Source: Octopus vulgaris (lineage: Eukaryota). From it: a stretch of DNA of 64,000 bases. The stretch is from contig OX597818.1 in NCBI GenBank assembly GCA_951406725.2, positions 34,968,001-35,032,000 on the forward strand. The letters run 5' to 3'. A model generated the notes under the pieces. It worked only from the letters and a program-made list of their open reading frames with translations, did not search any database and was not told where the DNA came from. The number at the start of each line of letters is the position of its first letter. The first letter of the stretch is position 1. The translations under genes were made by a program, and so were the position numbers. This document shows, piece after piece, positions 4,540-62,205 of this stretch.

Positions 4540-6510
4540 ATTGTCATCATCATCATCACCATCATCATCACCATCATCACCACCACCACCACCACCACCA
4601 CCACCACCACCACCACACCACCACCATCATCCTCATCATCATCGCCATCATTTAACACCCATTTTCCATGCTGGCATGGGTTGGATGGTTTACCAGGAGC
4701 TGATCAGCTGAAGGGCTGTTCAGGCTCCACATCTGTTTTGACATGATGGTTTCTACAGCTGGATGCCCTTCTTAAACACCAACCACTTTACAGAGTGTAC
4801 TGGATGCTTTTATGCAGCATGGGTGCTTTTTATGTGGCACCAGCATCTACAAGCCTGCAAGATTTAGGGACACTCAGCTAGAGACAGATGCTGGGGATGA
4901 GCCTGTATGCAAGGGCAACCATGGTTTTACTTAGCTTGCCATGTCTTCTCAAACACAACAAACTGCCAGGAGTCTTGGTCTCCAGTCATCTCCTCTGTGA
5001 ATACCAGCATCTGTAGATCCTTTCTCATCATTTCACCTCATATCTTCCTGGGTCTACCCTTTCCACATGTTCCCTCTACAATTATAGATCAGCACCTCTT
5101 GATGCAACTGTCTTCATTCATATGCATTACATGGTCATACCAGCACAGTCTTCTCTCTTGTACACTACATCTGATGCTACATATACCTGTTTTTTTCTCT
5201 CAGATCCCTTACATTCTGTCGTATATGCACACTAACACTACCCATTCAGCAAAGCATACTGGTTCAAGTCTTTGCATATCCTCAGTAGTCATAGCCCCAT
5301 GTCTCACTGCCATGTAGTATAGCTGTTCATACACAGGCATTGTACATTCTGCCTTTCACTCAGAGGGAGAGACTCTTCATTACTAACAGAGCCAGTAGCT
5401 CTCTGAACTTGGCCCAGTCTATTCTGATTCTAGCAGCTATGCTTTTGGAACAACCATTCTCACTACAAACTCGGTCACCTAAATAACAGAAACTGTCTAC
5501 TACATCTAAGGATCCCCACTGTCATATGAGGGAGTCTGTTTTTTTGTACATTCCTAGTGTTTAATGTACTTGCACATCTGCCACTTGTAAAGACTACTTT
5601 CTCTGTTAGTGAAACTACCGCACCTCTTATGTGTCCATAGCTTGAACTGGGTACACCTTATGGAGTTTCTCCCAACACCTGTATCAAGCAAGGCCATCTC
5701 CCTGAAGAGATCTACAATTTGTCTGTTTTCCTACTTACCAATACTTTGGTATTTGCTAAATTAACTCAAAGGCCCTTTTATCCCAGTTTGTGCTTCAATA
5801 CCTGAAATTTCTTCTCCAGTTCTGGTAGTGATTCAGCAATAAGAACAAGGTCATCAGCATAGAGGGGCTCCCAAGGGCAGCCAGTCTTAAATAAGAGGTA
5901 TCTAGGAACCGAACCCTGGTGGACTCCTACTTGTACACTAAACTCCTTGCTATACTCATTGGTGACTTTCACCTTACTAACAACATCCTTGCACATGATT
6001 TGTACAGCTCTCACTAACCATTCATCAATCTTTAGCTTCCACATTGTCCACCAAATAAGGGAGTGGAGGTCCCTGTCAAAGGCTTTCTCCATGTTAACAA
6101 AAGCTAGAAACAGGATTTTATTTTTGGCCAAGTATTTCTCCTGCAGTTGCCTCACCAGGAAGATAGCATCGGTGGTGTTTCTCCTTGGTACAAATCCAAA
6201 CTGCATCTCATCTGTGCTGACTCTCTTCCTAATTAATGGAGCTATGACCTTTTTTGCAACTTTCAGCACCTGGTCCAGCAATTTAGTACCTCTGTAATTA
6301 TTTCTGTCTAAGGCATCACCTTTGCCTTTGAAGCAGTTGTCTATAATGCTGCTACACCAATCATTGGATATGACTCCCTTATGGACAACCTGATTAACTA
6401 TACAGGTTACCAGGTCACATCCCACTCCACTGAAGATTTTAAGCATCTCGGCAGTGATCCCTGATGGGCTGGAGGCTTTCCCTGTCTTCATATCCCTAAT
6501 TGCTTTATCT
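4540..6510 (-). mobile_element. 5'-truncated RTE-clade LINE with RT relic, C-terminus, 3' UTR and (GAT/GGT)n tail
   Basis: RT ORF 5778-6510; EGTCGKGRPRKI near 5040-5075; continues into the AAGGGCATCCAGCTGTAGAAAC...CAACCCATGCCAGCATGGAAAA 3' UTR and trinucleotide tail. Confidence 0.9.
5778..6510 (-). pseudogene. RTE reverse transcriptase fragment
   Basis: KGKGDALDRNNYRG, QFGFVPRRNTTDAIF, FVNMEKAFDR, GVHQGSV, YADDLVL; internal deletion between QGS and YADD and premature stop; the N-terminal part of the tracked ORF (to 6623) is non-element sequence. Confidence 0.92.
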
Positions 6511-7499
6511 GCTAAGCTAGTGATGAACAAAGCATAGTAATACATCGATAATTTTGGTAAAAAAAAAAGTAAATTAAACAAAATAAAATAAGAAAACATC
6601 CACCCTCCAACAGAAACACGCACCTAAAGATAAGAAGTCTGATTATAAGTGCATTAGATCTTGTAGACCGTGGTTCAAGTGTTGTCAGAGTACCAAGGCT
6701 GATATACACCATCAGAAAAAAAAAAGCTGAATTTTGTAGGTTATCTTAATCCTCCCCTCTCTCTTTCTCTCTTGTCTCTTTTCTTTCTTTTACCCCCTCC
6801 CCACTTGCTCTCTCTTTCTCTCTCTCTCTCTCATTCACTCCTTCTTTTTCGTTTTTCTCAGTTACCTCTTGCTTTTTCATTTAGATTTAACAATAGCTTA
6901 AAAGTGAAAGGAAGAAAGCTTATTCCTGGAAGAGTTGTATATGTAAATATGAGTCAGCAGACTTCTCTCTATATGTTTGTGTGTATGTGTAGATAAACAT
7001 GTGTGTTTGTGTGTGTATGTGCATGCCTCTGTATGTGTGTGTTTGATATGCAAGCATATGTGTTGCATATGTATTTAAATGTGTGCAGATGTGAATGTGT
7101 TTGAGCGTGTCTGTAGCCGTACAGAATATTTAGAAAGATATCTATATATGGCTTAGTGAATGTCTGTGTATCCGTCTATATACATACCCATTTATATATA
7201 TATATATATACATGGATATCTATGTATGGGTTTGTGAACATCTATGTATGTATACACCCAGATTCCTTAAAGTACATATTGTAATTCAGATGTATATATA
7301 TTTATGGCTAAAAATGGAAAATCCTCCTTAAACATATGACTTAGAAATTCCCTTCTCTGGAGGTGATACAAAGATCAGATCTATTACATACACCTTCAGC
7401 ATGTGTGTGTATGTATGTATGTGTGTGTGTGTGTGTGCGTGTGCGCGCACGCGCGTGCATGTGTGTGTGTGAGTGTTTGTTTAAGAGAGCAAGACGCAT

Positions 7500-7922
7500 C
7501 TTCTTCCCCATCTTCTCTCTCTTTCCTCTCCCTTTTTCCAACTGGGGTAGCCATGTATCTCCTTTACAGCAAAACACTGGTTTCTGTTCCTCTATTGTAT
7601 TTAGACTTTCATCACCTGGCACAAAGCTACCTTCCTCAATACTACTACTGCCTGCTCTGTTGAAAGGTTTTGTTTTACAAGTTACTTGGTAACCTCACTG
7701 GTGCTGGTGTCTCATAAAAAGCACCCAGGACACTCTACAAAGCGGTTGGCATTGGGTAGGGCATCCAGCCATAGAAACCATGTCACAGCAGACAGGGGAG
7801 CCTGGCACAATCCTTTGGATTGTCAACTCCAGTCAAAGCATCCAACCCATGCTAGCATAAACATTAGATGTTAAATGATGATAACGATGATGATGATCCT
7901 GATATTGATGATGATGATGATA
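7500..7922 (+). mobile_element. RTE 3' UTR fragment with (GAT)n tail
   Basis: AAAAAGCACCCAG...GGGCATCCAGCCATAGAAACC...CAACCCATGCTAGCAT then GAT repeats. Confidence 0.75.
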
Positions 7923-8314
7923 TTTTAAGAGGGGATGCACTCAGAACCAAAAGCAATAATTTCTTTTATTTTTAAGAAATTTTTCACTGATTCAAAGAAG
8001 TTAGAAAAAAACTTATCAGCAATTGTTGGTGAATCAAGAAGAAGAAAAAAAGAAATTTCAAGACAGCAAGACTAAATTTATTGAGCTAATTAATCTACTT
8101 AGGTAAAAGACAATATGGTCTTTGTTTGCAAGTAAGAGAAACGACCAAACTGTTCTTTCTTTGAAAATGTAAATTAGCATGAAAAATTTATGTACTGGAA
8201 AATATCTTCCTTTCTTTTTGAGAGTCACCAATACTTGTCAGTCTCCATCTCTGGAGTTAAATCTCAATAAAGAAATTATTGTGTACAGCATTCAGCTTAT
8301 CACTTTCAATTTAA

Positions 8315-8455
8315 CTCTTTAGCATTAAAACTAGCCATAACAAGCCATAATATTTAACATGTTTCATGTTGAAACTGGCCAGATCCGGCCTCTCACCTCA
8401 ACCCTACAATTTCTTTCTAAAACTAAACAATCACATCATTGAAATCTCTATACTA

Positions 8456-8486
<31 letters not shown>

Positions 8487-8885
8487 GTTTACGTCCGCTT
8501 TCCATGCTAGCATGGGTTGGATGATTTGACTGAGGACTGGCAAACTGGATGGCTGCACCAATGCCCTTCCTAATGCCAACCACTCCGAGACTGTAGTGGG
8601 TGCTTTTACGTGCCACCGATACGAGGGCCAGTCAGGCGGTACTGGCAATGGCCACACTCAAATGGTGTTTTTTTTATGTGCCACCTGCACAGGAGCCAGT
8701 CCAGTGGCACTGGCAATGACCTCACTCGAATGCTTTTTTTCATGTGCCACCGGAACAAGTGCCAGTAAGGTGACACTGGTAATAATCATGCTCGAATGTT
8801 ACTTTTTACATGCCAAGATAATTAATTCAAAACAATGGGAATAAATAAGCATCACATTTGACAGAATAATGTGAATACTAAAAGA
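8315..8885. mobile_element. piggyBac-type MITE interrupted by an RTE 3' end
   Basis: TTAA|CTCTTTAGCATT ... AATACTAAAAGA|TTAA (degenerate TIRs with TTAA flanks); insertion at about 8456-8815. Confidence 0.65.
8456..8815 (-). mobile_element. RTE 3' end (family B) with internal ~55-bp repeats
   Basis: (CAT)n-CGTTTACGTCCGCTTTCCATGCTAGCATGGG; four TTTT(A/C)(C/T)GTGCCA units. Confidence 0.8.
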
Positions 8886-8929
8886 TTAATTTACTAACAA
8901 TTTAAAGCGTTTCCCAACTGGATATTACC

Positions 8930-9523
8930 ACCATCACCACCATCACCACTGCCACCACTGCCACCACTGCCACCACTGCCACCACCGCCACCACTGCCAC
9001 CACCACCAACACCAACACCACCATCATCATCACCATCATTTAACATCCGCTTTCCATGCTAGAATGGGTTGGACGATTTGACTGAGGACTGGTGAACCAG
9101 ATGGCTGCACCAGGCTCCAATCTTGATTTGGCAGAGTTTCTACAGCTGGATGCCCTTCCTAGTTTGTTAAAATCATTAAAGGATGTTGGATTTGTAGAAT
9201 CAATTGAAGAGACACAAAAAGGGGATGCAGAAAAATGGAAGACACAAAGAGAGGGAGAGAGAGAGAGAGAGAAGGCAGAAAAAAGAAAAAAATCAAAGGC
9301 GCAGGAGTGGCTGTGTGGTAAGTAGCTTGCTTACCAACCACATGGTTCCGGGTTCAGTCCCATTGCGTGGCATCTTGGGCAAGTGTCTTCTGCTATAGCC
9401 TCGGGCCGACCAATGCCTTGTGAGTGGATTTGGTAGACGGAAACTGAAAGAAGCCTGTCGTATATATGTATATATATATATGTATGTGTGTGTGTGTTTG
9501 TGTGTCTGTGTTTGTCCCACTAG
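8930..9523 (+). repeat. Local duplication, copy 1 (copy 2 about 13890-14475)
   Basis: Near-identical across trinucleotide tract, RTE tail, unique spacer and SINE A head. Confidence 0.85.
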
Positions 9524-9700
9524 TTGGATAGATAGACAAATATAACAAAATAATTTGATAAAAAATGTGAATTTTTAATTATGTTCTGAGATGTTACAAA
9601 AACAACAAAAATATTTTTTAATTTTCTTTATTCTAATGGTGTGTTTACGTCCTCCGTCCTCCGTCACTTAGCGGTTCGGCAAAAAGAGACCGATAGAATT
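9298..9700 (+). mobile_element. SINE family A, interrupted at 9524-9636 and 3'-truncated
   Basis: GGCGCAGGAGTGGCTGTGTGGTAAG head; resumes GGTGTGTTTACGTCC at about 9637. Confidence 0.8.
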
Positions 9701-10313
9701 CTAAACTCACCTGAACAGAGTGAATGGTCTATAGTTTACCTATAGCATCTAGAACCATTGGTAGTTTCCTTTAACAGATTCATCAATGAAGTCAAGCTAT
9801 GCAAGAGTACAGCAGATAATTAGTCTCTCGAGGAGAATCCATTTCTTATAGGTATAATTACTGGTTTTAATTACCTTTTTTTTGTTGTATGGAGGCATGA
9901 TTGTTTTCCATTTTAGCATGGTCTTTGTTAGTATCTATTAGAGGTATACTCCCAAATAGTTCACAATAATCAATCCAGGCTATTTTAAGATTTCTCTTCA
10001 TCCCTTTGCTGTCTTTTGTAACAGTTCAGTTTACCAGTAGCGCTTGTTTACAGCAGTATATCCCCATTTAAAACTGTATGCCTATAAGCTTGTTTATCAG
10101 CAGCATTTAAAACCAATGATTAGCACTATTACCTGGTATTTCAATATTTCAGGGTCAGGATCCCTTCTTCAGGAGATTTACAAAAATAAAAAAAGAGTAT
10201 TGACAGATAATGTCTCTAAGCAGAAACTTGCATTCAAAAAACCTTTAATTGATATAATGATAATATAGTGGTAAAATCCCTGATTATAAGTGCACATATT
10301 AAAAATATTTTGG

Positions 10314-10647
10314 TTCTCTTTTACTCTTTTTCTTGTTTCAGTGATTTGACTGTGGCGATGCTGAAGCACTGCCTTTAGTCGAGCAAATCAACCCCAGGAC
10401 TTATTCTTTGTAAGCCTAGTACTTATACTATCGGTCTCTTTTGCCGAACTGCTAAGTTATGGTAAAACACAAACATGTATATATACAATGGGCTTCTTTT
10501 TTCAGTTTCCGTCTACCAAATCCACTCACAAGGCTTTGGTCGGCCTGAGTCTATAGTAGAAGACACTTGCCCAAGGTGCCATGCAGTGGGACTGAACCTG
10601 GAACCATGTGGTTCGTAAGCAAGTTACTTACCACATAGCCACTCCTA
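10314..10647 (-). mobile_element. SINE family A
   Basis: Head and tail match other copies; internal deletion. Confidence 0.85.
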
Positions 10648-10712
10648 AGATATTTTATTTTGGAATATGTATTGAAAAAATAATTCTGAAGTTGATTGGT
10701 AAGTTTTCTAGA

Positions 10713-10829
10713 ATTGGTCAGTACAAATCTAATATTGGTCAGTACAAATCTAATATTGGTTGGTACAAATCTAATATTGGTTGGAACAAATCTAATATTG
10801 GTTGGTACAAATCTAATATTGATTGGTAC
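10713..10829. repeat. 21-bp minisatellite, about 5.5 units
   Basis: Unit ATTGGT(CA/TG)GTACAAATCTAAT. Confidence 0.95.
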
Positions 10830-10889
10830 CCTTTATATATATATATATATATTGGAAAGCAAGTTTCTTACCACACAGCCATGCCTGCA

Positions 10890-10965
<76 letters not shown>

Positions 10966-11319
10966 TATATATATACATATAATATATACATATATATATA
11001 TATATTTGAATAGAAAAAGGGTAAAAATACTCTTGCTTACTATTATGTACCAACTCTGCTTTCAACGCCAGTTTATGTAAATTGGCATTGAAATAATTGT
11101 AACTGATCATTAAAGATGGGTTAAAGTAGTTCATTTTTTTATTATTTGGTTATATTTTACTTTTCACTAAAGCCACACAATAGTTTTACTGTCATAAAAC
11201 CAGGATTTTCTACACCTGAAGAATTTCAGTATTAGTCTGGAATCTGACAGTATTGATTATCTAGAATTTCGGTTGGGCTCTGCATTGGAAGTCCCCCATC
11301 TTTACACCCTAACAGGACC

Positions 11320-11538
11320 TTATATTCTTTTATTCTTTCAATTGTTTCAGTCATTTGATTGTGGCCATACTGGAGCACTGCCTTTAGTTGAACAAACTGA
11401 CCCCAGGACTTATTCTTTGTAAGCCTAGTGCTTATTCTATTGGTCTCTTTTGCCAAACTGCAAAGTTATGGGGACATAAACACACCAGCATCAGTTGTCA
11501 AGCGATGGTGAGGGGACAAACACAGAAACTCACACACA
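11320..11538 (-). mobile_element. SINE family A, 3' half
   Basis: Tail and body match family; ends in CA tract at the mariner junction. Confidence 0.8.
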
Positions 11539-12403
11539 TTGAGAATAACCCATATTGCACAACCTGAGAATTAGTAGAAAACCTCAACCTATCAAAATCC
11601 ATCGTTCATGAGCACTTGGTAAAGCTTGGGTACACAAATCACTACGATGTTTGGGTACCTCATGAGTTGAGTGAGAAGAATCTTTTGAATCGCATTTCCA
11701 TCTGTGATTCACTTTATAAACAGAATGAAAACGCGCCATTTTTAAAGCAAATTGTGACAGGTGATGAGAAATGGATTATCTACCGAAATGTTCAGAGAAA
11801 GCAATCCTGGAGTAAGCAACAAGAGCTTAGCCACCTCAAAAGTGGGTCTTCACCCTAAAAAAGTCTTGATTTATGTCTGGTGGGATTGGAAAGGAATTCT
11901 GTACTATGAGCTTCTCCCAAGTAACCAGACAATTAATTCTGAGAAATACTGCACACAACTGGATGAGTTAAAAGCAGCAATTCAAGAGAAACGTCCAGGA
12001 TTGACCAACAAGAAGAGTGTTATTTTCCAACATGATAATGCAAGACCACACGTTTCTTTGGGAACCAGACAAAAATTGCTGCAGCTCGGCTGGGATGTGT
12101 TACCCCACCCTCCATATTCACCAGATATTGCTCCTTCGGATTTCCACTTATTCAGGTCTCTGCAGAATAGTCTTAATGGTAAAAATTTCAATTCCTTGGA
12201 TGATGTAAAAAGATACCTTGATGAATTCTTTGCCATGAAACCACTTCAATTCTAGGAAGATGGTATTTTCAAGTTAAAGGAAAGATGCAGATGAATTGTG
12301 CAACAAAATGGTTCATATTTGGTTGACTAAAAATATAATGGCAAGGATTTATTGACCTTTTTCTTTCCTTTAAAAATTGGCACAAACTTTCCGGACAACC
12401 CAA
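11539..12403 (+). mobile_element. 5'-truncated mariner (DD34D) transposon with frameshifted transposase
   Basis: WVPHEL, IVTGDEKW, HDNARPH, HPPYSPDIAPSDFHLF across ORFs 11616-11858 and 11761-12255; right TIR ...CAAACTTTCCGGACAACCCAA followed by TA at 12404-12405. Confidence 0.93.
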
Positions 12404-12529
12404 TAGTATGTGTATGTATGTAGATAGTATGTTTTCCTTTCAGTTTCCATCAACCATTCACTTACAAGGCTTTGGTCAGCCTGGCATTATACTGCACTCT
12501 TACTTTTATAAAACAACTACCAGTAAAAT

Positions 12530-13005
12530 ATAGGGGGCTGATTAAATTCACTTTTATTTTGACAGTTTGCCCAGTAGGAGAAGAAGACATTATATCCTAG
12601 ATATTAACTAGATTATGGCTGGTAGATAACAGTTTACTAAAGGGAGTCACTCTCAGCTTCCCGCATGGCCACGAAACAGCTCTGGAACCTGGCACATATG
12701 TTCCTCACTATGTCACTGGGAAGGTTTTTGAACATCTCCTTGGTTCTGACCACCAGCTCAGCCTTGGTGTTTCAGGATTGCAAATAATGAAATTAAGGGG
12801 CTAGAAATTGGGGCTGGTGAAGTCAAAGAAATTCTCTGACAACCATTTCTGACTCTTTCTGGAGATATAGCAAAGAGCCAATCCTACTGCCACACATAAG
12901 GCCTTCCAGCAGCAGCAACCCTCACTAGCCAGAGTTTGACCATGATCTCCAGCAGTTTCACATAGCTGTCTGAATTGAGCCTAAAGCTCTGTCCCATGCT
13001 GTTGG
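12530..13005 (-). mobile_element. Decayed Tc1/mariner-superfamily transposase 3' region (maT/rosa-like)
   Basis: Minus strand reads AGRPYVWQ*D and KSQKWLSENFFDFTSPNF*PLN, resembling the YxFQQDxAP and WPPNSPD motifs; several stops and frameshifts. Confidence 0.65.
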
Positions 13006-13029
13006 ATGAATTTCAGTATATGCCTTACA

Positions 13030-13424
<395 letters not shown>

Positions 13425-13756
13425 ATACAGTCATAATGCCTGTTGTATACTTTCTTGCTAGTCAAAGCTTCATAATCTTCAGTACAGCTGTCCATGTCAT
13501 ATGTTACAACCTTTACAGTGTTCACAAAGCATTGAGCAACAGTCATGATGTTGGCATTTTGATATCCAGTGCAAATCATCATGACATAGGTAATCTTTTC
13601 CAATATTTAGACAGCTTCCAATCCTCCATGTCAGCTAACTTTTTCTCAACTACAACTTTAATCATTATGCTCTTCAGTGCCATTAAATTTTCACTGATAC
13701 ATCAAGCTGTTTCTCCAAAAATGAGATATAAAACATCATCAAATTTAGTTTGAACA

Positions 13757-14112
13757 CCATCATCATCATCATCACCATCACCATCACTATCACCATCAAA
13801 ACCACCACCACCACCACCACCATCATCATCGTCATCATCGTCATCATCGTCATCACCATCATCACCGTCATCACCATCATCACCGTCATCGCCATCACCA
13901 CCATCACCACTGCCACCACCGCCACCACTGCCACCACTGCCACCACTGCCACCACCACCAACACCAACACCACCATCATCATCACCATCATTTAACATCC
14001 GCTTTCCATGCTAGAATGGGTTGGACGATTTGACTGAGGACTGGTGAACCAGATGGCTGCACCAGGCTCCAATCTTGATTTGGCAGAGTTTCTACAGCTG
14101 GATGCCCTTCCT
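13757..14112 (-). mobile_element. RTE 3' end (family B) with compound CAT/CAC tail
   Basis: Consensus match 13992-14112; trinucleotide tract 13757-13990. Confidence 0.8.
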
Positions 14113-14247
14113 AGTTTGTTAAAATCATTAAAGGATGTTGGATTTGTAGAATCAATTGAGGTGACACAAAAAGGGGATGCAGAAAAATGGAAGACACAAA
14201 GAGAGGGAGGGAGAGAGAGAGAAGGCAGAAAAAAGAAAAAAATCAAA

Positions 14248-14418
14248 GGCGCAGGAGTGGCTGTGTGGTAAGTAGCTTGCTTACCAACCACATGGTTCCG
14301 GGTTCAGTCCCATTGCGTGGCATCTTGGGCAAGTGTCTTCTGCTATAGCCTCGGGCCAACCAATGCCTTGTGAGTGGATTTGGTAGACGGAAACTGAAAG
14401 AAGCCTGTCGTATATATG

Positions 14419-14449
<31 letters not shown>

Positions 14450-14672
14450 TTGTGTGTCTGTGTTTGTCCCACTAGCATTGCTTGACAACCAATGCTGGTG
14501 TGTTTACGTCCTCCATCACTCAGCGGTTCGGCAAAAAGAGACCGATAGAATAAGTACTGCGCTTACAAAAAGAATAAGTCCCGGGGTCGAGTTGCTCGAC
14601 TAAAGGCGGTGCTCCAGCATGGCCACAGTCAAATGACTGAAACAAGTAAAAGAGTAAAAGAGTAAAAGAGTA
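14248..14672 (+). mobile_element. SINE family A, full length
   Basis: Head, central microsatellite, (AAGAGTA)n tail. Confidence 0.9.
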
Positions 14673-15349
14673 AAGGAAAAGAGAGAAGAATAAAGAAAGT
14701 AATAGATAGAAGGAAGAAGGAAATATGCATTGCATCGAGATACAAATAGGGTAGACAGGAAGGAAAATTTGAATAACAATAGAAAAAAGGTAAAACAAAA
14801 ACAATATACACACACATACACACACACACGCATGCACACACACATACATACACACACAATCCCCTCCTACCCACAAGAGAAAGTCAATCAAAAACTGGGA
14901 CTTTACAGTCCAGCATTTAATCAGTTGTTATCCAAAGAAGTTTACTGATAAACCTACTAAGTATCATTCAGTAATTGAAACAGTGTATTGTTAAATTTCA
15001 ATCCTTAGAATTTTAACATTGTGATCAAAGTTTATTATTAGTGATTATACAGCTGAAAACAAAGGTAGTATCCTACAATAGAATTGTTTTGTGACTATTG
15101 GGTGATTATTTTTAGTATTCTTTCTGACACATCTGCACCAAACACTTATCAGATTGTGTTTCTAGTTTTTGTTTAAAATAATTCTCAGATTATATGAACC
15201 CAAGGGAGAAGATACAGTTCTAATAATTGGGGTATCTTAATTTCAACTTAATTATATCTCATCAGCTTTGGTTCAACCAGACGGTTTATATATTAAATGA
15301 TAAGGCTGGTAATAATATTTTTAATGTAGTAACGCCCCAAATTTTAGTT

Positions 15350-15680
15350 CATCATCATCATCATCATCATCATTGTTTAACGTCCGTTGGGTTGGATGGT
15401 TCAACCGGGTTCTGGGAAGCCAGGAGGTTGCACCAGGCTCCAGTCTGATCTGGCAGTGTTTCTACAGCTGGATGCCCTTCTTAATGCTAACTATTCCGTG
15501 AGTGTAGTGGGTGCTTTTTACGTGCCACCGGCACAGGTGTCAGGCAATGCTGGCAACGACCACGATTCAGTTGGTGCTTCTTATGTGCTACTGGCACAGA
15601 AGCCAGTCAAGGTGGCACTGGCATCGGCCACGTTCAAATGGTGCCCCTTTCAAGCCACCAGCACAGGTATCACAACTACA
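15350..15680 (-). mobile_element. RTE 3' end (family B)
   Basis: (CAT)n plus consensus. Confidence 0.8.
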
Positions 15681-15841
15681 ATTTAAAAATATGGAATGCT
15701 TCATGAATTTGTATGTCATCTCATTAAAATTAAATAAAAATAGACTGTAAACAATGCTTTGAGAATAAGTCTATAATGGATGGCAAGGTTTATGATATTG
15801 GGAGAATATTGTCTTCCTCCATAATCTCTTTTTGTTCTTTG

Positions 15842-16254
15842 TGTAGTTCAGGCTCCGGCAGGCGAAGAGAGAAGATTTCAAGCACAAATGCAATTTACAA
15901 CAGGTTTATTTACAGGTTCACAGGATAAGTGAAGTGTTCTGCTCTCAGCAACCATCATAAGCTGTGTGTGTTGTGCAGTAGCTCCGTTAGTGCAGGCACA
16001 TTGCCTTTGGAGGTACAACATACAGACAGGCCCAGCCAATGGAGTGCAATCAGCAAGCGCTGCTGCTAAGAGGCGGAAAGAAAAAGACCGAATCTCTTTC
16101 TGTTTTGCCCTTATATACAGTTTGCCATCGCGAGCCTCGTTGTGATCTCGCGCACGGCAAATGGATGCAAGTGAGGTCTCGCTCCAGTCTTGGAGATAAC
16201 AATGGCTGCTGTGAGATCTCATCCAATATGGTGCTGACTGCTTTTGCTGCTACA
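15842..16254 (-). mobile_element. Probable solo LTR (413 bp)
   Basis: TGTAG...CTACA inverted termini; minus-strand TATATAA (16111-16117) upstream of AATAAA (15905-15910); GC-richer than flanks; no TSD visible. Confidence 0.65.
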
Positions 16255-16879
16255 AGTCTGATCTTGGCAATATGGTAACAACTTCAAAGGACATGCTTTA
16301 ACTTTATTTCATCTCCTCAGCTAAGTATAACATATAACAATATTGTCAATATTTAGTGTAAGTCATTTGATAGCTTAGTTTTTTATATAATAGTGGGCAG
16401 TTTGAAACTCATATGTTTTGGCCACAATGCCAGTAATAGGATATAAGCTGTTGGTCTCTGAGCTAGTATCATATAGAATCAGGTAATCACATTCTCTCTT
16501 TGGAAATAGTTGGATAGTAAAGTCATTGGGTGATGAATGCAGAAGTAAGGACTATACAAATATAAATGTGTAATATAATTTGAGGGTTCATACAAACATA
16601 GCATAATTATATGCTGAAAAATTGACTTTGTTGAGGTAGTATTAAGTAAGAGTTGGAAAGATGTACTGGAGACAGACATGAAAAATTTGTTCCTCTCAGA
16701 GGAAATGAAACACCAAAATAGCTGAGGACTGTATAAGCCACATATAGAAAGAAAAGTGAAAGTCATGGAAACCAAACCCAGAATCAAGAGGCCGCAAGGT
16801 AAACATAGCAAAGACAAAAGTTTTAGTGAGTGAGAAAGAAAACAGAACCCTGATGACTATGCCTGATATACAGAAAACA

Positions 16880-17640
16880 AGTTGGTATAAACTCCAAACA
16901 CTGTACCCAAGCTATGGACACACAAGTAATGTAGTGGAATCATAAACAGATTAACAGAGAAGGAAATTTTCATATGAGATAGATGCATTGTAGCAGTAAA
17001 TACTATAAGCCCACTGGAAATAGACTTGAAATAGACTTGAATGTGTGGATGGCTCATAACATTTTATACTTAGGCGGTGTAATTAGTAAAGGAAATGGTT
17101 TCTCTGAAAGTACAGTAGTCTAAGTGAGAATGACTTGAAGGAAGTTCAGGGAGTTACTATTGCTGTTGGTAACAAGTGTCTTTCTCCACAGAGTGAAGGG
17201 CAGATTGTATTATGCTTGTGTTAGAACTGCAATGCTGCATGCTAATGGGACATGAGCTGTAAACCCATAGAACTTGAGGAGATGGAAAAGAAATAGGGTG
17301 AGCATACCCTATGGATATGCAATGTATGTGTACATGGACAACATAGTAAAAATGTGCTGAGGGAAAACTGGACAATGAATTAGATGTAGTATGTAAGAAA
17401 GAAGACTGTGCTGGTATGGACATGTGATGGGTATGGGTGAGGATATCTGTATAAAGAAGTGCCAATCACTTTATGTGGATGGAGCTAGTGAAAGAAGGAG
17501 ACCCAAGAAGATATGGGATGAAGTGGTGAAGGCATTTCTCAGGACCCTGAGCCTCAAAGAGGAGATGAAAAGGGACCAAGAAGGGACCAAGATGAGGACC
17601 ACTATGGTTCTCAGGAAGACCCTCTCACCATGGTGAAACT
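16880..17640 (+). mobile_element. RTE LINE C-terminal relic
   Basis: YLGGVIS, RRLCWYGHVMGM, ERRRPKKIWDEVVK; many stops and frameshifts. Confidence 0.8.
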
Positions 17641-17764
17641 GAGCTCTTGAAGTGATGTATGTGTGTGTGTGTGTGTGTGTGTAGCAACAGCAGTCTGAGC
17701 ATGTTACCTTTCTCCTTCCGTCCTTATTCTCCCATCACCCTACACACATCTTTTATGTGTCCAA

Positions 17765-18106
17765 AGCTTACACTGGGTGCATCTTATAGAGTTTCTACCT
17801 ACACATTTTCTACAGATTGAGCAGGGCCATCAACCTGAAGGGATTTATGATTTGTCTGCCTTCCTACTTAAAATGACTTTGGTTTTTGCTAGGTTAATGC
17901 TAAGGCCCTTTGATTCTAGACCATGCTTCTGTACTTCGAACTTCTCCCGTTCAGGTAGTGATTCAGCTATAAGAGCAAGGTCACCAGCATAGAGGAGCTC
18001 CCAGGGGCTGCCTGTCTTGAATTCCTCTTTTATTGCCTGGAGGACTATAATGAACAAGATGGGGCTGAGCATCAATCCTTGGTGGCCCCTGAATTCTTCA
18101 CTGTAC
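17765..18106 (-). pseudogene. RTE RT fragment (downstream part of split copy)
   Basis: HQGLMLSPILFIIVLQA...WELLYAGDLALIAES...GLSINLAKTKV. Confidence 0.88.
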
Positions 18107-19278
18107 TTGGATATCCGCCACAAGTGTGTGTGTCCGTGTGTTATACATGCGGCCAATGTGGCTGTTGACGGCTAATGAGTTTGTCCAATGGGGACGTGGT
18201 TGTGGGGTCATTACTGCCACTCAGCCAAATCCGCCCTCCACCATGCTGCTGTGCAGCACCTGCACTTTGCCGATAGCTCTGTACCTCGTGTCTGGCAGTG
18301 CGATCGAGAGGCCATTGTCTTGGCGGCGATATCAATTGTGAGTGTGTGTGTCCATGTGTTACGCATGCGGCCACATGATCATTACCACTGCTTGGTCGAA
18401 TGCGCACTCTGCAGCCATGCCATGCACTGCATACATTTCGCTGATAGCTCTGCGCTCTCGTGCTCACAATCGTTAGTAATGCACAAAAGCGCATGGTCTC
18501 GCGCGCATCAACATGGACGCCACCGTGACCGATGCTGGCAGCGTGGCTGCTGTCGCTGGGAGGTCCGCGTGATCCAAGTGGTCGATATCGGGATGTGGTC
18601 CGTCCTGTAAATTTACAGGTTGGGCCATGTGGAACAGCCACGCTCTAGATGACTGTCGCACCCTGAGGGGTCCCGACTACATTAAGGGGTACAAGCCAGC
18701 AGGTCGATGTCTCCGGCTTCGACTGCACTGCGGCACCAACGACTGCCAATGCTGCCCGGAGCCCTGTGATGGCCACAGCCTTCATGCGACCTGCACCGGG
18801 CTACCTTCCTTTGTGTACACGCTGTGGCTGCTGCCGCATGATGACTGTCGCAGCGGTGTCCTGTGCTCCCGTTGCAGTACCATGTCTGACTCGGCTGCTG
18901 GTGGCTCAGCCACTGACCGCGACTGTGACCATGTGGTTATCACTGCTGCTTGTCCGATTGTGCTTTCCACCTCTCCACCATGCTGCCATGCATTGTTTGC
19001 ATTTCGCCAAGAGCTCCGCGCTCTTTTGCTCACGATCATCGGTAACGCACAAAAGCTCACGGTCTCGTGCATGTCAACATGGATGCCACAGCGACCGATG
19101 CCGGCAGCTTGGAGGCTGTCGCTGGGAGGACCACATGATCCACATGGTCGATATCATGACGTGGTCTGTCCCATAAATTTACGGGTAGGGCCACGCAGAA
19201 CAGCCACGCTCTAGGTGACCATCGCATCCCAAGGGGGTCCAGAGTACTATGTAAGGTTGTCCAGACTACTATGTAGGG
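18107..19278. mobile_element. Unclassified GC-rich, internally repeated insertion with 13-bp TSD
   Basis: TTCTTCACTGTAC at 18094-18106 and 19279-19291; interrupts RTE RT; internal repeats about 18370-18690 and 18930-19256. Confidence 0.85.
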
Positions 19279-19405
19279 TTCTTCACTGTACCCGTTGTCC
19301 ACCCTCAACTTACTGGTAGCTTTCCTGTACAACCACTCTTCTATCTTTAGTTTCCACATTGTCCTCCAGATAAGGGATCGGGGGACTCTGTCAAAAACTT
19401 TAAAA
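19279..19405 (-). pseudogene. RTE RT fragment (upstream part of split copy)
   Basis: KVFDRVPRSLIWRTMWKLKIEEW...SKLRVDNGYSEE. Confidence 0.85.
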
Positions 19406-19527
19406 GTGTTCATTACATTGCTCATGTTTGTATTTATTGTAGGATTGGTGGTTTTTGAAGCTTTCGCTTTCATCTTTGGCAAGCGGTAATTTTACCCTTC
19501 TTTTATTCAAATATATATATATATGTT

Positions 19528-19797
19528 ATAGTTATCGCCATACTAATATGGCATTCTTATAAAAATAAGAATAAAGCTGACCGCTTATTAGCTCCATGAG
19601 GCCATCGCCTTAAGTTAGCTATTTGATACACAAACTGTATCAAATAGCTAACTTAAGGCGATGGCCTCATGGAGCTAATAAGCGGACAGCTTTATTCTTA
19701 TTTTTATAAGAATGCCATATTAGTATGGCGATAACTATTATTTTCCGGGAACGCTGCCGTGTTCTCTTTTAGAGAGACTTAGTAATTTTAATATTTC
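19528..19797. repeat. Near-perfect 103-bp inverted repeat plus unique tail, in (TA)n
   Basis: Arms 19528-19630 and 19636-19738, loop CAAAC, one mismatch; homologous to 35906-36239. Confidence 0.9.
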
Positions 19798-20635: not shown

Positions 20636-21411
20636 GATAAGAAATGGAGCAATAATAACACTTAGAAGTAGATCTTTGGTGTTTTAAAGTTATTTAATAA
20701 CAAGGAAAGTATGTTTACAGCTGTTTCAGTATATCAAGCTCCAACTGATATATGGAATTATGGACCTTACTAAAATGTAAGACTATTGAATTAACAAACA
20801 TTTTACTTCTTTTTTTTTCCTTTCCTTTCCTTACATTCTTCTTATTTACTTCTATTTATCTTTGACATATAATTGTTCTGATGATGTCTATCAATTGCAA
20901 CAAGGTAAATGAAAATTTACCCCAGCTATATATACTGAAACAGCTGTAAAATATTATCATCATTATTAAATGACTTTACGAGGGGCGTTCAATAAGTAAT
21001 GCCTCTGACCCACTTGCAGTTGTTTGATCTAGCTGAAAGTTTGCATGTGCAATTATTTATATCTCTATAGATTAAGTGGCAAATTACAGCTCTGAACTAA
21101 TTGTGGTTTCTGATTTACAGGTGTTTGAACTGAGTCAAGTGTGAAACGGAGCTTGTTGAGTGTCGAGCAGTGATGCGGTTTTTGTATTTGAAAGGACGCA
21201 CACCACGGGAAACTTTTGATGAAATAAAAGTAACTTATTGTGATGATGCCCTATCATATGACCTTGTAAAACGCTGGCATCGTGAATTCAAACATGGTCG
21301 GAACTTTGTGGAAACAGCTTCCAGATCTGGTCGCCCCTTTCTGTCATTGATGAGGCATCTGTCCGTACCAATGATCTACTTCTAACTGTTATTATTGCTC
21401 CATTTCTTATC
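20636..21411. mobile_element. Fold-back element with hammerhead-like motif, interrupted by mariner
   Basis: Left arm 20636-20733 pairs with 20930-20977 plus 21367-21411; CTGATGA 20878-20884 and GAAACAGCTGTA 20937-20948. Confidence 0.7.
20979..21366 (+). mobile_element. Mariner 5' fragment (irritans-like)
   Basis: TA|CGAGGGGCGTTCAATAAGTAATGCC TIR; ORF 21170 FLYLKGRTPRETFDEIK...VKRWHREFKHGR...RSGRP is the N-terminal HTH. Confidence 0.88.
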
Positions 21412-29076: not shown

Positions 29077-29107
<31 letters not shown>

Positions 29108-29304
29108 TTGTCCTCCTAGCATTGCTTGACAACCGATGCTGGTGTGTTTACGTCCCCGTCACTTAGCGGTTCGGCAAAAGAGACCGATAGAATAAGTACT
29201 GGGCTTACAAATAATAAGTCCCGGGGTCGATTTGCTCGACTAAAGGCGGTGCTCCAGCATGGCTGCAGTCAAAATGACTGAAACAAGTAAAAGAGAAAAG
29301 AGAA
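28906..29304 (+). mobile_element. SINE family A, full length
   Basis: Consensus match. Confidence 0.9.
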
Positions 29305-29347
<43 letters not shown>

Positions 29348-29371
29348 CATACATACATACATACATACATA

Positions 29372-29607
29372 CAAGGTCTGATCAATAAGTATCAGGGCTG
29401 TTGCCATAGTAACAAAGCTAAAGCACGCAGAGTGAAGCTGGTTGGCAAAGATTGACCTTGAACTCTGCTGTGCATGCACACTAAGTTTTAACATTCTAGC
29501 TCACGTCTGCTGTTTACAACAGTACTTGGAAGGAAGATGTGTAGTGTGTGATCGTCACATTGACCATGTCAAAGAAAGTTGGCACGGCGATACCTGCTTA
29601 GAGGCCC
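29372..29607 (+). mobile_element. Mariner 5' end fragment
   Basis: TA|CAAGGTCTGATCAATAAGTATC TIR-like start; short GDTCLEA remnant of a transposase N-terminus. Confidence 0.6.
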
Positions 29608-29634
29608 ATCAAACCACACACACACATATATATA

Positions 29635-29669
<35 letters not shown>

Positions 29670-29670
<1 letters not shown>

Positions 29671-30236
29671 CTCTTTACTCTTTACTCTTTTACTTGTTTC
29701 AGTCATTTTGACTGCGGCCATGCTGGAGCACCGCCTTAAATCGAGCAACTTGACCCCAGGACTTATTCTTTGTAAGCCCAGTACTTATTCTATTGGTCTC
29801 TTTTGCCGAACCGCTAAGTGACGGGGACATAAACACACCAGCATCGGTTGTCAAGCAATGCTAGGGGGACAAACAGACACTATAAATTAATATGTTCAAT
29901 AAAAATAATTATTTTCGAAATTTTTTCTCTTATGAGGTTCTTACGCTATCTACCTGACAATTTCTTGTTAAGTTTTCCTTATTAAGTAGTTGTCCATTGC
30001 TATATATATATATATATATATATACTTTACTCTTTACTCTTTTACTTGTTTCAGTCATTTTGACTGCGCATGCTGGAGCACCGCCTTAAATCGAGCAACT
30101 TGACCCCAGGACTTATTCTTTGTAAGCCCAGTACTTATTCTATTGGTCTCTTTTGCCGAACCGCTATGACGGGGACATAAACACACCAGCATCGGTTGTC
30201 AAGCAATGCTAGGGGGACAAACAGACACACAAACAT

Positions 30237-35905: not shown

Positions 35906-36239
35906 ATTATTTCTAAGTCTCTCTAAAGGAGACTACGGCAGCGGTACTGGATATTAACAGTTATCACCAATCTAATATGGCAGTCCGTAAATATAGGATG
36001 AAAGCTGCCGTTGATAAGCTCCAAGAGGCCATTGCCTGTAGCTAGCTATGTGACACATGAACCTGTGTCCATTTAAACCTTTGAACAGGGAAGGTCAGCT
36101 GCTGTTCGAAGGTTATAATGGACACATGTTAGTGTGTCATATAGCTAGCTAGAGGCAATGGCCTCTTGGAGCTAATCAACGGCATCTTTTGTCCTATATT
36201 TATGGACTGCCATATTAGATTGGCGATAACTGTTAATAT
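35906..36239. repeat. Fold-back element (~140-bp arms) plus tail, same family as 19528-19797 in opposite orientation
   Basis: Arms span 35951-36239; tail 35906-35950 is the reverse complement of about 19744-19790. Confidence 0.88.
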
Positions 36240-46295: not shown

Positions 46296-46410
46296 TATAT
46301 ATATATATATATATGTGTGTGTATAAGGATGAAATGGAACACACGAGTTGATATATATGAAAAAATAAGTCAAGATAGAAAATGCTAAAATAATTTTATA
46401 AAGAACATTT

Positions 46411-46448
46411 CAGTACCGGTTTTGGTCATTTTGAGACCTTTTCAACTG
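46411..46448 (-). ncRNA. Minimal hammerhead motif, U3-A8 variant (G12 mutated to A)
   Basis: Minus strand CAG-TTGAAAA-GGTC-TCAAAAT-GACC-AAAA-CCGG-TA-CTG. Confidence 0.6.
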
Positions 46449-46654
46449 TAACGATTAAATAATTAAATTTAGAAAAATTAAAAGAAAAGTTTTTTTAAAA
46501 GAATATTTGTATAGTGTTCAAATATAAGTGGCATTTTCCTTGTTTCTGCCTTGCTCTGTCTCTCTTGTTTACACTTGTGGGTTCGAGGTCAAACAAATCA
46601 TCTTTTAAAAAAACTTTTCTTTCAATTTTTCTAAATTTAATTATTTAATCGTTA

Positions 46655-46692
46655 CAGTTGAAAAGGTCTCAAAATGACCGAAACTGGTACTG
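46655..46692 (+). ncRNA. Minimal type I hammerhead ribozyme motif, U3-A8 variant
   Basis: CAG-TTGAAAA-GGTC-TCAAAAT-GACC-GAAA-CTGG-TA-CTG: stem I CAG/CTG, stem II GGTC/GACC, GUA site. Confidence 0.75.
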
Positions 46693-46743
46693 AAATGTTC
46701 TTTATAAATATATTTTAGCATTTTCTATCTTGACTTGTTTTTC

Positions 46744-46807
<64 letters not shown>

Positions 46808-48310
46808 ATATATACGTTTATATATTTATTGTGCAAGATTTGGCTAAACTGGCAAAATGACCATTCCGAAATACAACAATATATATATATATATATACAC
46901 ATACACATACACGCATTCATAAATACATACACATGTATGTATACAAATTCAAGCCTCAGTACACTATACACCTCATACATACTTGTAGGTATGCTGCACA
47001 GCTTCCTTAATATTAAGAAAAATAACATATGTAAGCATACACATATATGTAAAAATAAAAAGAAATCTTTTATAATTCCAAATATTTATCAAATTTTTGC
47101 TAGTAATGACAGGTTAAACAAAAAAATGATAAATGAAAATAAATAATTAAAAAAAGTAAAACAAAAAATAAATAGTTTGATCTCACAGCGATTGTGACAT
47201 TATGCAATTGATAAGGTGACCTGAGTTGATCCTATCACACTTCCTAATCAAGGAAGAAATCATACACATAAACACTCAGACACATACATACATACATACA
47301 TACATACAGACATATCCTATGTATCTTTGAGCATGACGTAACAATACAGAGTACACTCAGCATGGTGATAAATTTCCTTATGACAGGTTATATAAATGAG
47401 ATTGAATAGGTTGAAATATTCAAAGTTTAAAAAAGTTCTTTGGAACATTTTCACCTTTGCTGTATTGAACTTTCGGGTTTTTCTCTTCTTCTTGGATACA
47501 ACGGATATTTGAAAAAGTCATTGATTTGAATAAACCAAACAGTGATATAGAAGGAGTTCACATTATAGCATGCTTGGTGAATGCTGTATACATATATATA
47601 TGAGGTAATTAATTCCTTACCAAAATATAACAACAAATATGTATTGTCATACATATTTAATTAATTTTGTATACCTGTATGTATTAGTTATGTATAAGTC
47701 ATGTATGTCTGTGTGTATGTATTTACATGTATGTATTTGGCATGTAAGTATGTATATAAGTATATATATTTTTGTATTAGTTATATATGTACGGTGTTTA
47801 GCTATATATGTATTATTTAGCCATATATGTAATATCTATGTGTTTGTGTAAAAATGTCTCAAGAAATGTTTGAATTCAAGCTGTACCACAGATGCACGGT
47901 TTCTTACCTGAGGGTAAACCCTAAATAGTAGAGATACTCCAAGAGGGAAAAAGAACCTCTGTAAAAATCCTAAGTGTATGGGAACCAAAGGTTGGCGGTA
48001 TGGTTCTTGACCTCTTGTATAATTTTCTGTGAATAAATACGGGAAAGTCTTTATGATTTTCCTTCCTGGTCTTTTGCTGTTTATCTATATGCAAAGTGAA
48101 ACCAAGCTAAGTGGATCTTTTGAAATTACACTGGTATCTCATAGGACTATTGATGATGACTTTCACACTCTGGTAAAGTGGGTATGAGAATATATTGGGT
48201 GACCCTTGAAGTGTCTGAAATCATAAAAAAAAAAGGTTAAGAATTATTCCTCTAACAGTTTTCTTTCTACTATCTGCAATTCCATTTTGTCAGGAAACAT
48301 TGCATTTAAA

Positions 48311-48551
48311 ACACTCACCGGTAAAATTTCCACTTATTTTGTCTTTTTATCTTCCTAAAATTTGAAAAGGTTGCAAGACGCAACGAAAAGTTTAGGAAAA
48401 TAAAAAGATGAAATAAGTGGAAATTTTACCGGTGAGTGTGTTAAATAATAAGGCACTAAAAGAGAATGACTCTCCCCAGACACAACAGAATATGCTTCAA
48501 CACACAAACTCATATAAAGAATCTTACAAACCAAATCCAAAAACGAAATAT
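48311..48551. mobile_element. Hairpin element with central hammerhead-like motif and 12-bp TSD
   Basis: ATTGCATTTAAA at 48299-48310 and 48552-48563; inverted arms span 48305-48445; centre TTGAAAA-G-GTTGC-AAGAC-GCAAC-GAAA (48362-48388). Confidence 0.82.
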
Positions 48552-49362
48552 ATTGCATTTAAAGTTTAAAACTTTTGATTCTATTGAAGAAAGAAGGATG
48601 ATTTGTTTGGAAATTTGAAAGAGAAGTTTGAACATGTTTGGATCATAATCTATGCGATGTTTATTAGGTTTAGCAGTCAAGGGATTTGAGCAGGGTTAAT
48701 TGAGGCAAAGTGCTTATAGATTACTTTGTATTGATTTATTAGGACTTAGATTTTCCAGAGTTCTATGATTCAATTGATTTTTTTTTTACATTTTGTGGTA
48801 TAGCTTTCCCAGAGTGAAACTAATAACATGATTATGCTTCAATGGAAGAAACTATAGATCTAATGTAGAAATCATTAGATATATAGTTTACACATTTTAT
48901 GGTTCCATTGGTTCTAAAGCAACCATACTATTGATTTTTGCAGTGGATGATCTTTGCTGGACTTGAATTTTCATGATGACTTTCTTGATGTTGTGTGACC
49001 ACACCACATGAGAGAAATACTTCAGAGATGGCCAGGTAAAAAGTTCAAGACAATTCTAACAGATTTCTGTTTTTGCCAAATTATTCTGGAAGGCCAAAAA
49101 ACATGGTTTTCTTTCAGCAGTATCTTGTATGGTGATTATATGGGTTTCACCACACTCAAGCTTTTCAGAAACAATAATTCACAGATTTATAACGACTTTG
49201 ATACTTGATGATACAAGGGGTTCCTAGTTAGAAGAAAGTAAAGCTAGTATCCTAAACTATTTCCTGAATTAAACAAAGTAGGTCAAATTTTTCTATATTC
49301 AATTCCATGATGTTATATACTGTGCAGAAATTTGTTTGAACAAGTTTAAATGCTTATCTGAA

Positions 49363-60484: not shown

Positions 60485-60904
60485 AGGCGCAGGAGTGGCT
60501 GTGTGGTAAGTAGCTTGTTTACCAACCACATGGTTCCGGGTTCAGTCCCACTGCATGGCACCTTGGGCAAGTGTCTTCTACTATAGCCTCAGGCCAACCA
60601 AAGCCTTGTGAGTGGATTTGGTAGACGGAAACTGAAAGAAGCCCGTCGTATATATGTATATATATATATGTATATGTATGCGCGTGTGTTTGTGTGTCTG
60701 TGTTTGTCCTCCCACCATTGCTTGACAACCGATGCTGGTGTGTTTATGTCCCTGTCACTTAGTGGTTCGGCAAAAGAGACCGATAGAATAAGTACTGGGC
60801 TTACAAAGAATAAGTCCCAGAGTCAAGTTGCACAATTAAAGGCAGTGCTCCAGCATGGCCGCAGTCAAATGACTGAAACAAGTAAAAGAGTAAAGAGTAA
60901 AGAG
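60485..60904 (+). mobile_element. SINE family A, full length
   Basis: Consensus match. Confidence 0.9.
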
Positions 60905-61204
60905 ATATAAAGTTCAATCATTACAGTTTGATGAGATTGCAAATCTAAAGTTGCTGTTTGTATTAGATATAATTGAGTAACAATCTAAAACATTTCATTA
61001 TATCAATCATTTTTCCTGTTTCAAGAAATCTCAGATTTTTTACTGAGTTCTTTCTCACACTTGCCCTAAGATCTCTCTCTCACCAGTTTGCTGTTCTCAC
61101 ATTTATGCCCGCTCTGATTAATTTACAACCCTATGAAGAAGTCCCTATAGTAGCTAAACTTCCCTCAAATCTCACACTGTCATTTTAAATGTTTGTTCTT
61201 TCTC

Positions 61205-61478
61205 AAGCCACGCCTGGCTCATAAGGGCCAGTTTCCCAGTTTCCTTGGCATATAGGTTCCCCACCTGGACAGGATTTCGGTCTGTTGCAGGTGAGCTGCA
61301 AGATGCAGGAGGAAAGAGTGAGAGAAAGTTGTGGTGAAAGAGTCAGCAGAAGTTTGGCAGTACCTTCTGCCAGAGCCACGTGGAGCTTAGATGTTTTGCT
61401 CATAAACACACACATCGCCCAGTCTGAGATTCGAACCCACGATCCCACTGCTCTAACCACTAGGCCATGTGCCTCCAC
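61205..61478 (-). mobile_element. SINE family E variant with V-domain-like tail
   Basis: tRNA head and GAAAGAGTGAGAGAAAGTTG segment shared with 37945-38255, but a different 3' part. Confidence 0.72.
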
Positions 61479-61537
61479 TCATATTAAATAGGGAAAAGTG
61501 ATATTAGATATAAGGTTTGTCCCAGATACACCTTTAG

Positions 61538-61757
61538 CCCTTTTGTTACTGCATTTATTTTGAGATGCTCTGTGTTTCTTTCAATTACTTTAAATATAAC
61601 AAAAAATTTAGTAAAATAACTTGGTTATCATTAAGCTAGTGTTAGGAACATAAATTGTGACTAAGGTTTGGTGGAAGATTTTTATTCAAAACTTATTAAA
61701 ACAAGACATTCGTACTCAGAGCCAGAATTGGTTTCAGCCGGGTTGGTAACGAAAGCG
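61538..61757. mobile_element. piggyBac-type MITE, complete
   Basis: TTAG|CCCTTTTGTTAC ... GTAACGAAAGCG|TTAA. Confidence 0.8.
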
Positions 61758-61865
61758 TTAATAAGATTTGATGGTCACTGACAGACTCTCATTGATCATT
61801 GGTCTGCTTAATCAGGATTGACATTCAGTCAAACAGAAACTACAGCTTGATCATTTTGTTTTAGT

Positions 61866-62205
61866 CTTTTATTCTTTTACTTGTTTCAGTCATTTGTCTG
61901 TGGCCATACTGGAGCACTGCTTTTAGTCGAGCAAATCAACCTCAGGACTTATTCTTTGTAAGCCTAGTACTTATTTTATCAGTTTCTTTTTGCCGAACTG
62001 CTAAGTTATGGAGACATAAGCACACCAGCGTTGGGGAGACAAAAACAGACACACAAACATTCACACACACACATCATGGGTTTCTTTCAGTTTCAGTCTA
62101 CCAAATCCACTCACAAAGCTCCAGTCAGCCATAGTTGAAGACTGGGACTGAACTTGGAACTATGTGGTTGGGAAGCAAATTTCTTACCACACAGTGATAC
62201 CATGC
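61866..62205 (-). mobile_element. SINE family A
   Basis: Consensus match with deletions. Confidence 0.8.

Follow-up and report, generated by a model that had tools for sequence, protein, structure and literature searches.

Penelope-like elements (PLEs) carry minimal hammerheads in which helix II is preceded by an extra base, a true helix III is missing, positions 15.2-16.2 form a palindrome and helix I is short, and a U3-A8 variant of these ribozymes is represented by Cercyon in Schistosoma mansoni (~1,300 hits; PMC4209133). There, S. mansoni(4) combines the box UUGAAAA and H17=U with a 3-bp helix I, and C. gigas has an A-U-U-U linker; the single minimal hammerheads described in that study are inactive, and pairs on opposite strands, 100-700 bp apart, are reported (PMC4209133). 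Inverted, 5'-truncated copies and tails are typical of PLEs (PMC8557442, PMC8969392), and the EN+ Penelope elements of Adineta vaga display 8-10-bp target-site duplications (TSDs), an empty site and palindromes at the junctions (PMC3846280). One PLE enzyme cuts and extends both strands, prefers ATT, uses uncut RNA and inserts without ribozyme cleavage in vitro, and two internal A/C-rich starts define the tail (PMC11167929). In an octopus genome, 190 families of PLEs are reported to make up 6.83% of the sequence, but no family sequences are given for comparison (PMC13282606).

Both the inverted architecture and the U3-A8 core variant have already been published. Here we describe a 241-bp insert in the genome of Octopus vulgaris, located in a window of 64,000 nucleotides (contig OX597818.1; all coordinates are those of the window). 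The insert is probably a 5'-truncated, 5'-inverted terminal fragment of a PLE (pseudo-LTR plus tail) that contains a predicted-inactive minimal U3-A8 hammerhead and would have been made by priming from two strands.

The insert and its empty site

The insert is flanked by two exact copies of a 12-bp TSD, ATTGCATTTAAA, at 48299-48310 and 48552-48563 (features are on the plus strand unless stated otherwise), the 5' bases of which are ATT. A comparable direct repeat was found in none of 500 local shuffles, and the sequence thus agrees with the original prediction of a 241-bp element bounded by an exact 12-bp TSD of the retrotransposon type. There is no second copy of the element in the window. The inverted arm, on the minus strand at 48311-48363, is the reverse complement of its direct partner at 48387-48439 (53 bp, 4 mismatches) and takes the place of the family sequence upstream of the core, as indicated by the complementarity and by the loose ends of family contigs before 48362. 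In a wider alignment, 48304-48363 against 48387-48446, the arms are 92% complementary, and the predicted RNA fold has -82.9 kcal/mol (z -12.8; 0 of 200 shuffles). Hairpin and fold-back arms are therefore as first proposed, but the '106-bp tail' of that proposal had been counted from 48446, whereas the unpaired 3' portion within the insert comprises 112 nt (48440-48551). This portion consists of a body that reaches the main 3' end of the family (48440-48493; the ends cluster at 48485-48493 and are followed by AT-rich sequence) and an optional A/C-rich tail (48494-48551), beyond which lies the right TSD. Microhomology is present at both junctions. On the outer side, the 3' end of the TSD shares six of seven bases with the internal positions 48440-48446; on the inner side, the inverted arm and the direct copy have TT (48362-48363, U3 and U4) in common, and family contigs start at 48362.

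The target is symmetric at this one site, with AAAC (48295-48298) before the TSD and GTTT (48564-48567) after it, so that each strand would be nicked just before its own GTTT, a pattern that a dimeric endonuclease might produce. A candidate 48-nt intron (48432-48479) has a strong GTGAGT donor and a pyrimidine-rich acceptor ending in CAG; no joint that removes it is present among the 15 of 81 joints listed. In some PLEs, the tail encodes the start of the ORF. Two open frames run through the tail of the insert, of 45 aa (48417-48551) and 30 aa (48460-48549), and there is an ATG at 48492, the place of the family's main 3' end; given that Pfam returned no match for either frame and that the 45-aa frame has no homologue (weak evidence), the tail was rejected as the start of a PLE ORF.

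Contigs of paralogues and relatives were compared with the window at 80% likeness in four runs (X2, X5, X6 and X10) chosen from 24. RNA-type runs, with shares of just 0.04-0.19, were not among the four. In one X10 contig, from a related organism, 47954-48298 (record 661-1008) and 48552-48950 (record 1009-1405) are contiguous, and exactly 48299-48551, that is, one TSD and the insert, are skipped. Because this empty site holds one copy of the TSD, hairpin, core and tail arrived together, as originally claimed, and the insert is a single insertion from an abundant repeat family. The right junction is bridged in X5 and X6, which extend 45 and 56 letters into the element; the X2 contig extends 27 letters, below the 31-letter rule, and where the left flank is blank, in X2 and X5, nothing follows from it. 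Divergence of the flanks from X10 is 6.2% (46/744) and that between the arms is 7.5% (4/53, CI 2-18%), values that are compatible with an insertion around the time of the X10 split. Two of the four arm mismatches are TG against CA at 48409-10 and would be explained by a single CpG lost independently on identical arms, through decay on the two strands.

These features parallel those of the EN+ Penelope elements, in which head-to-head inverted, 5'-truncated copies with an optional 3' tail (PMC3846280; PMC8557442, Fig. 2), TSDs of about 10 bp, an empty site with one TSD copy and AT-rich targets (PMC3846280) are described. Unlike EN+ Penelope, the insert has no ORF, and its short arm ends 54 nt short of the main 3' end; the tail, at ~58-60 nt, is longer than the 30-40 nt published for PLEs. 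The A/C-rich 3' ends 110-190 nt downstream of the hammerhead, the two clusters of ends, the ATT at the target and the uncut RNA template are shared with PAc, the Poseidon element of Anolis (PMC11167929). In PAc, however, the core is C3-G8 and the ORF begins at helix II, whereas this copy shows no such start.

The hammerhead core and the repeat family

The core TTGAAAA-G-GTTGC-AAGAC-GCAAC-GAAA begins at 48362 and belongs to the remnant of a minimal type I hammerhead (48362-48395; layout as in PMC4209133, Fig. S3). The core boxes, the G10.1-C11.1 pair, helix II and UH are all present: the U3-A8 box (48362-68) is followed by the extra G (48369), helix II (48370-84), GAAA (48385-88), the 2-nt linker (48389-90), UH (48391-92) and TAG, the 3' strand of helix I (48393-95). 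A minimal-hammerhead descriptor that follows the published layout, although written after the motif had been seen, recovers two sites in the window (46658 and 48362) and none in 60 shuffled windows. As in Cercyon, there is a UUGAAAA box, an extra nucleotide before helix II, a G10.1-C11.1 pair, no real helix III, a 2-nt linker and H17=U (PMC4209133); the extra nucleotide is G here as against H in the consensus of that source, G being found in its Nasonia row. The insert differs from Cercyon by the loss of helix I and the AG linker in this copy, and by its sequence family and host.

Helix I adjoining the core amounts to 0-1 bp. The CTA that precedes U3 in the paralogues, and in the paralogues only, could pair with the TAG at 48393-95, and the resulting helix I of ~3 bp, as in the minimal hammerheads of PMC4209133, would be the state of the family but not of this copy. 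With this putative helix I, the layout resembles that of S. mansoni(4), and the family core accordingly would fit the published minimal hammerheads of PLEs; the same fit places the predicted cut after 48392. In the insert, the inverted arm sits where CTA was, and the 5' strand of helix I is lost. The linker (15.2-16.2), which is palindromic in minimal hammerheads that form dimers, is AG in the direct copy and AT, a palindrome, in the inverted arm. An alternative register, with a 4-nt loop AGTT and a cut after UA, leaves a single wobble pair as helix I. In the predicted fold, the long stem takes up U3, U4, U16.1 and H17 as paired bases (P 0.87-0.98), and opening the core costs 3.7 kcal/mol and leaves four extra bases before U3. 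Because helix I has at most one pair and these four positions are held in the long stem, the hammerhead of this copy is predicted to be inactive. Of the original claim of a U3-A8 hammerhead at the turn, the core is real, whereas the ribozyme is not intact.

None of the 95 Rfam matches at E<=1 is to a hammerhead family. Matches to microRNA precursors were rejected as driven by the hairpin (best score 59 bits versus a gathering score of 150). Motif matches outside the window were dismissed as chance as well: five metagenomic loci share the motif only, without similarity in helices or flanks (GC 0.44-0.61); two scans of viral contigs gave 0 and 1 match and prokaryote genomes gave one, each only 18-23 nt long. 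In a bacterial MAG (L006), two near copies of 20-23 nt, at 601-623 and 682-701 and 81 nt apart, match the arm; the MAG is otherwise unrelated, and these matches also were taken as chance.

The family to which the insert belongs is matched in all four runs, by 7,829-19,468 contigs per run, with a summed depth over the element of 10^4-10^5 times that of the flank, which is not a copy number. Depth climbs from the core to 48460-93 and then drops, and coverage falls towards the 5' end. The 3' ends of family members form two clusters, at 48485-93 and 48551-53, and 48494-48551 is therefore an optional tail. Among the 24 of 1,146 rows listed, loose ends cluster behind these same two positions, with AT-rich sequence, and before 48362 and 48411; those behind 48485-93 have an agreement of 0.42-0.54 and point to AT-rich targets, and the cluster at 48411 looks like subfamily divergence in 48397-48410. 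Loose ends before 48362 were found in 178, 143, 196 and 83 contigs of the four runs, with a consensus that ends in GACTA at an agreement of only ~0.5. Given that these contigs align from 48362 with other letters upstream, the family extends upstream and U3 is native, and the possibility that U3 was made by the inversion was rejected. None of the 40 of 88 variant rows listed falls in the element, and head-to-head joints between opposite strands recur in all four runs.

Position of the turn and origin of the inverted copy

The insert behaves as a terminal fragment of a PLE would and is probably derived from such an element, although its autonomous RT-endonuclease parent was not found: no GIY-YIG or PLE-type domain was detected in 149 of 267 window frames, and a homologue search with one tail frame gave no protein match. 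The PLE affinity originally proposed is favoured by the minimal core, the inverted 5'-truncated copy, the optional tail and the TSD of this copy, all of which match published traits of these elements.

By analogy with a PLE enzyme that cuts and extends both strands and does not require ribozyme cleavage (PMC11167929), we infer that the insert was mobilized in trans, that both target strands served as primers and that the products were joined head-to-head. A trans-acting PLE protein would nick the two target strands 12 nt apart, and the bottom-strand end would prime reverse transcription at the tail end (48551), which would continue across the ribozyme, still uncut, as far as U3 (48362). At 48440-46, the top-strand end would anneal through the 6-nt homology and be extended by 53 nt, up to the helix II base (48387), after which the two cDNA ends would be joined head-to-head via the TT/AA microhomology, with loss of the 5' strand of helix I. 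A pause at helix II may have placed the join; cleavage of the RNA did not. What counts against this scheme is that the outer end of the short arm, 48439, is not among the common family ends listed, and non-canonical priming is therefore needed.

The main rival to two-strand priming shares the PLE origin and yields the same product: a single cDNA ending at the core would snap back via the DNA of the ribozyme helices, prime itself and be captured through the 6-nt homology with the target. This is a possible but rather unlikely course of events, and it restates in structural, non-catalytic form the original idea that the position of the ribozyme is linked to the fold-back. Self-priming has been proposed for the palindromes at inverted PLE junctions (PMC3846280), and helix II is predicted to form in the cDNA (-4.1 kcal/mol), bringing the end beside the landing site, but the 2-bp pairing of the end is missing from the predicted cDNA fold. 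In X2 and in X5, a single contig is 4 nt shorter at 48358 and turns in the exact register of helix I, although depth across 48358 is only 0.13-0.20% of that of the core bin. Nine inversion-type joints are found among the 15 of 81 listed; six turn at 48362/3, as snap-back would suggest, but with partner ends that vary (48411-48448 and beyond), one lies at 48374 and two have a direct part starting downstream (48414 and 48465). The 48362/48411 joint is seen in all four runs. Among the 12 of 43 between-letter rows listed, as read by hand, three direct copies start ~5-9 nt upstream of U3, one turns at ~48393-95, seven have direct parts that start at 48414-48492 and one has no inversion; the sampling of these rows is biased. 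Turns at 48362 pile up partly by necessity, because the reference lacks the parental sequence upstream and turns located there collapse onto this position. The other U3-A8 element in the window, at 46.6 kb, turns at least 65 nt upstream of its own core, which also speaks against a snap-back at the core. The inversion point thus lies at the core edge in this copy, as predicted, but not as a general rule: paralogue junctions are scattered upstream of, within and downstream of the core, and the turn is not fixed at its edge. Given the partly forced pile-up, the link between ribozyme position and fold-back formation is no more than a possible one. That ribozyme cleavage generates the RNA 5' end at which the inversion forms is very improbable. 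The X6 contig that turns at ~48393-95, the predicted first bases past the cut, and two more contigs with an arm end near 48389-91 (all read by hand) agree with it, but most listed junctions are elsewhere, PLE insertion in vitro did not need cleavage (PMC11167929), and the direct part of the insert starts 31 nt upstream of the cut, so that the template was uncut and cleavage did not set the turn.

That the insert is one unit of a tandem retrozyme, or else a SINE dependent on a LINE, inverted by twin priming, is improbable, even though the size of the insert is within the retrozyme range, retrozymes are reported as non-autonomous PLE derivatives and LINE-like RT fragments occur in the window. 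Like non-LTR retrozymes (PMC7229834; bioRxiv 10.64898/2026.07.22.740005), the insert is short, non-coding, hammerhead-bearing and probably moved by PLEs; retrozymes, however, are tandem arrays with at least two complete ribozymes, whereas here only one copy is present, inverted and with one broken core of the minimal PLE type. No head-to-tail joint is found among the 15 of 81 listed, there is no tRNA gene in the window, and the insert ends in neither poly(A) nor a repeat. If the hammerhead-like core were there by chance, a MITE or fold-back DNA transposon would also be short, non-coding, very abundant and endowed with a strong hairpin, but this reading is strongly disfavoured, with only a slight chance of being correct: the arms are not terminal, the right one stopping 112 nt before the end, and the 12-bp TSD, the variable ends, the 5' coverage gradient, the absence of the core from 60 shuffled windows and its fit to published PLE ribozymes all argue against this origin.

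Neighbouring elements and implications for PLEs

The window is composed of microsatellite-rich DNA with RT and mariner remnants, and its repeats presumably resemble octopod repeats. The second U3-A8 element (46327-46742) lies between TA repeats and has arms at 46361-46510 and 46593-46742 (95%), with ~33 extra, tail-like nucleotides on the left. Its right arm contains a complete minimal hammerhead at 46658, with a CAG/CTG helix I that is extendable past one mismatch and a CTGG loop (CCGG in the other arm), and the copy in the left arm has G12 changed to A; 46658 is a better ribozyme candidate than the core at 48362. The insert shares only the core with this element and, as anticipated, represents a second family with U3-A8. 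A third family comprises head-to-head hairpins at 19528-19738 and 35951-36239, which are 76-80% alike, lie beside TA repeats and contain no core by the minimal-hammerhead descriptors; it may be a PLE type that lacks a hammerhead. At 29100-29880 and 60772-61990, copies of an abundant SINE-like repeat are paired in inverted orientation around unrelated spacers, and decayed fragments at 5778-6623, 17848-18171, 11758-12255 and 21134-21382 derive from RT (PF00078) and mariner transposase (PF01359, PF17906).

No description of this family was found in the titles, abstract openings and passages searched, and it may be catalogued in Repbase/Dfam, subscription papers or supplements outside the search; four exact motifs of the element are absent from the part of the PMC8557442 supplement (Naiad) that was available, and 'hammerhead' is absent from the supplement of PMC13282606. 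The titles, abstract openings and passages searched likewise gave no mapping of PLE inversion points against the hammerhead.

As it stands, the insert is one more truncated, inverted copy of the PLE type. It is, however, a clean and dated example: its empty site was found, its TSD is exact, both of its junctions show microhomology, and its family is very abundant and has two 3' ends. PMC8557442 and PMC3846280 treat the way in which inverted PLE copies arise as an unsolved question. It is doubtful that hammerhead helices, rather than cleavage, set the stop of PLE reverse transcription and the turn, by a pause or as a snap-back primer; if they did, this would explain the palindromes at inverted PLE junctions, and in copies that turn in the register of helix I the U3-A8 ribozyme would be intact, clamped by a helix I both long and perfect. 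The 4-nt-shorter contigs of X2 and X5 would set such a helix against an otherwise complete core. A family of this size would allow a direct test of whether ribozyme structure positions the turn. With this insert, the U3-A8 core is extended to a pair of families that look abundant in a single animal genome and of which the literature searched gave no earlier description.
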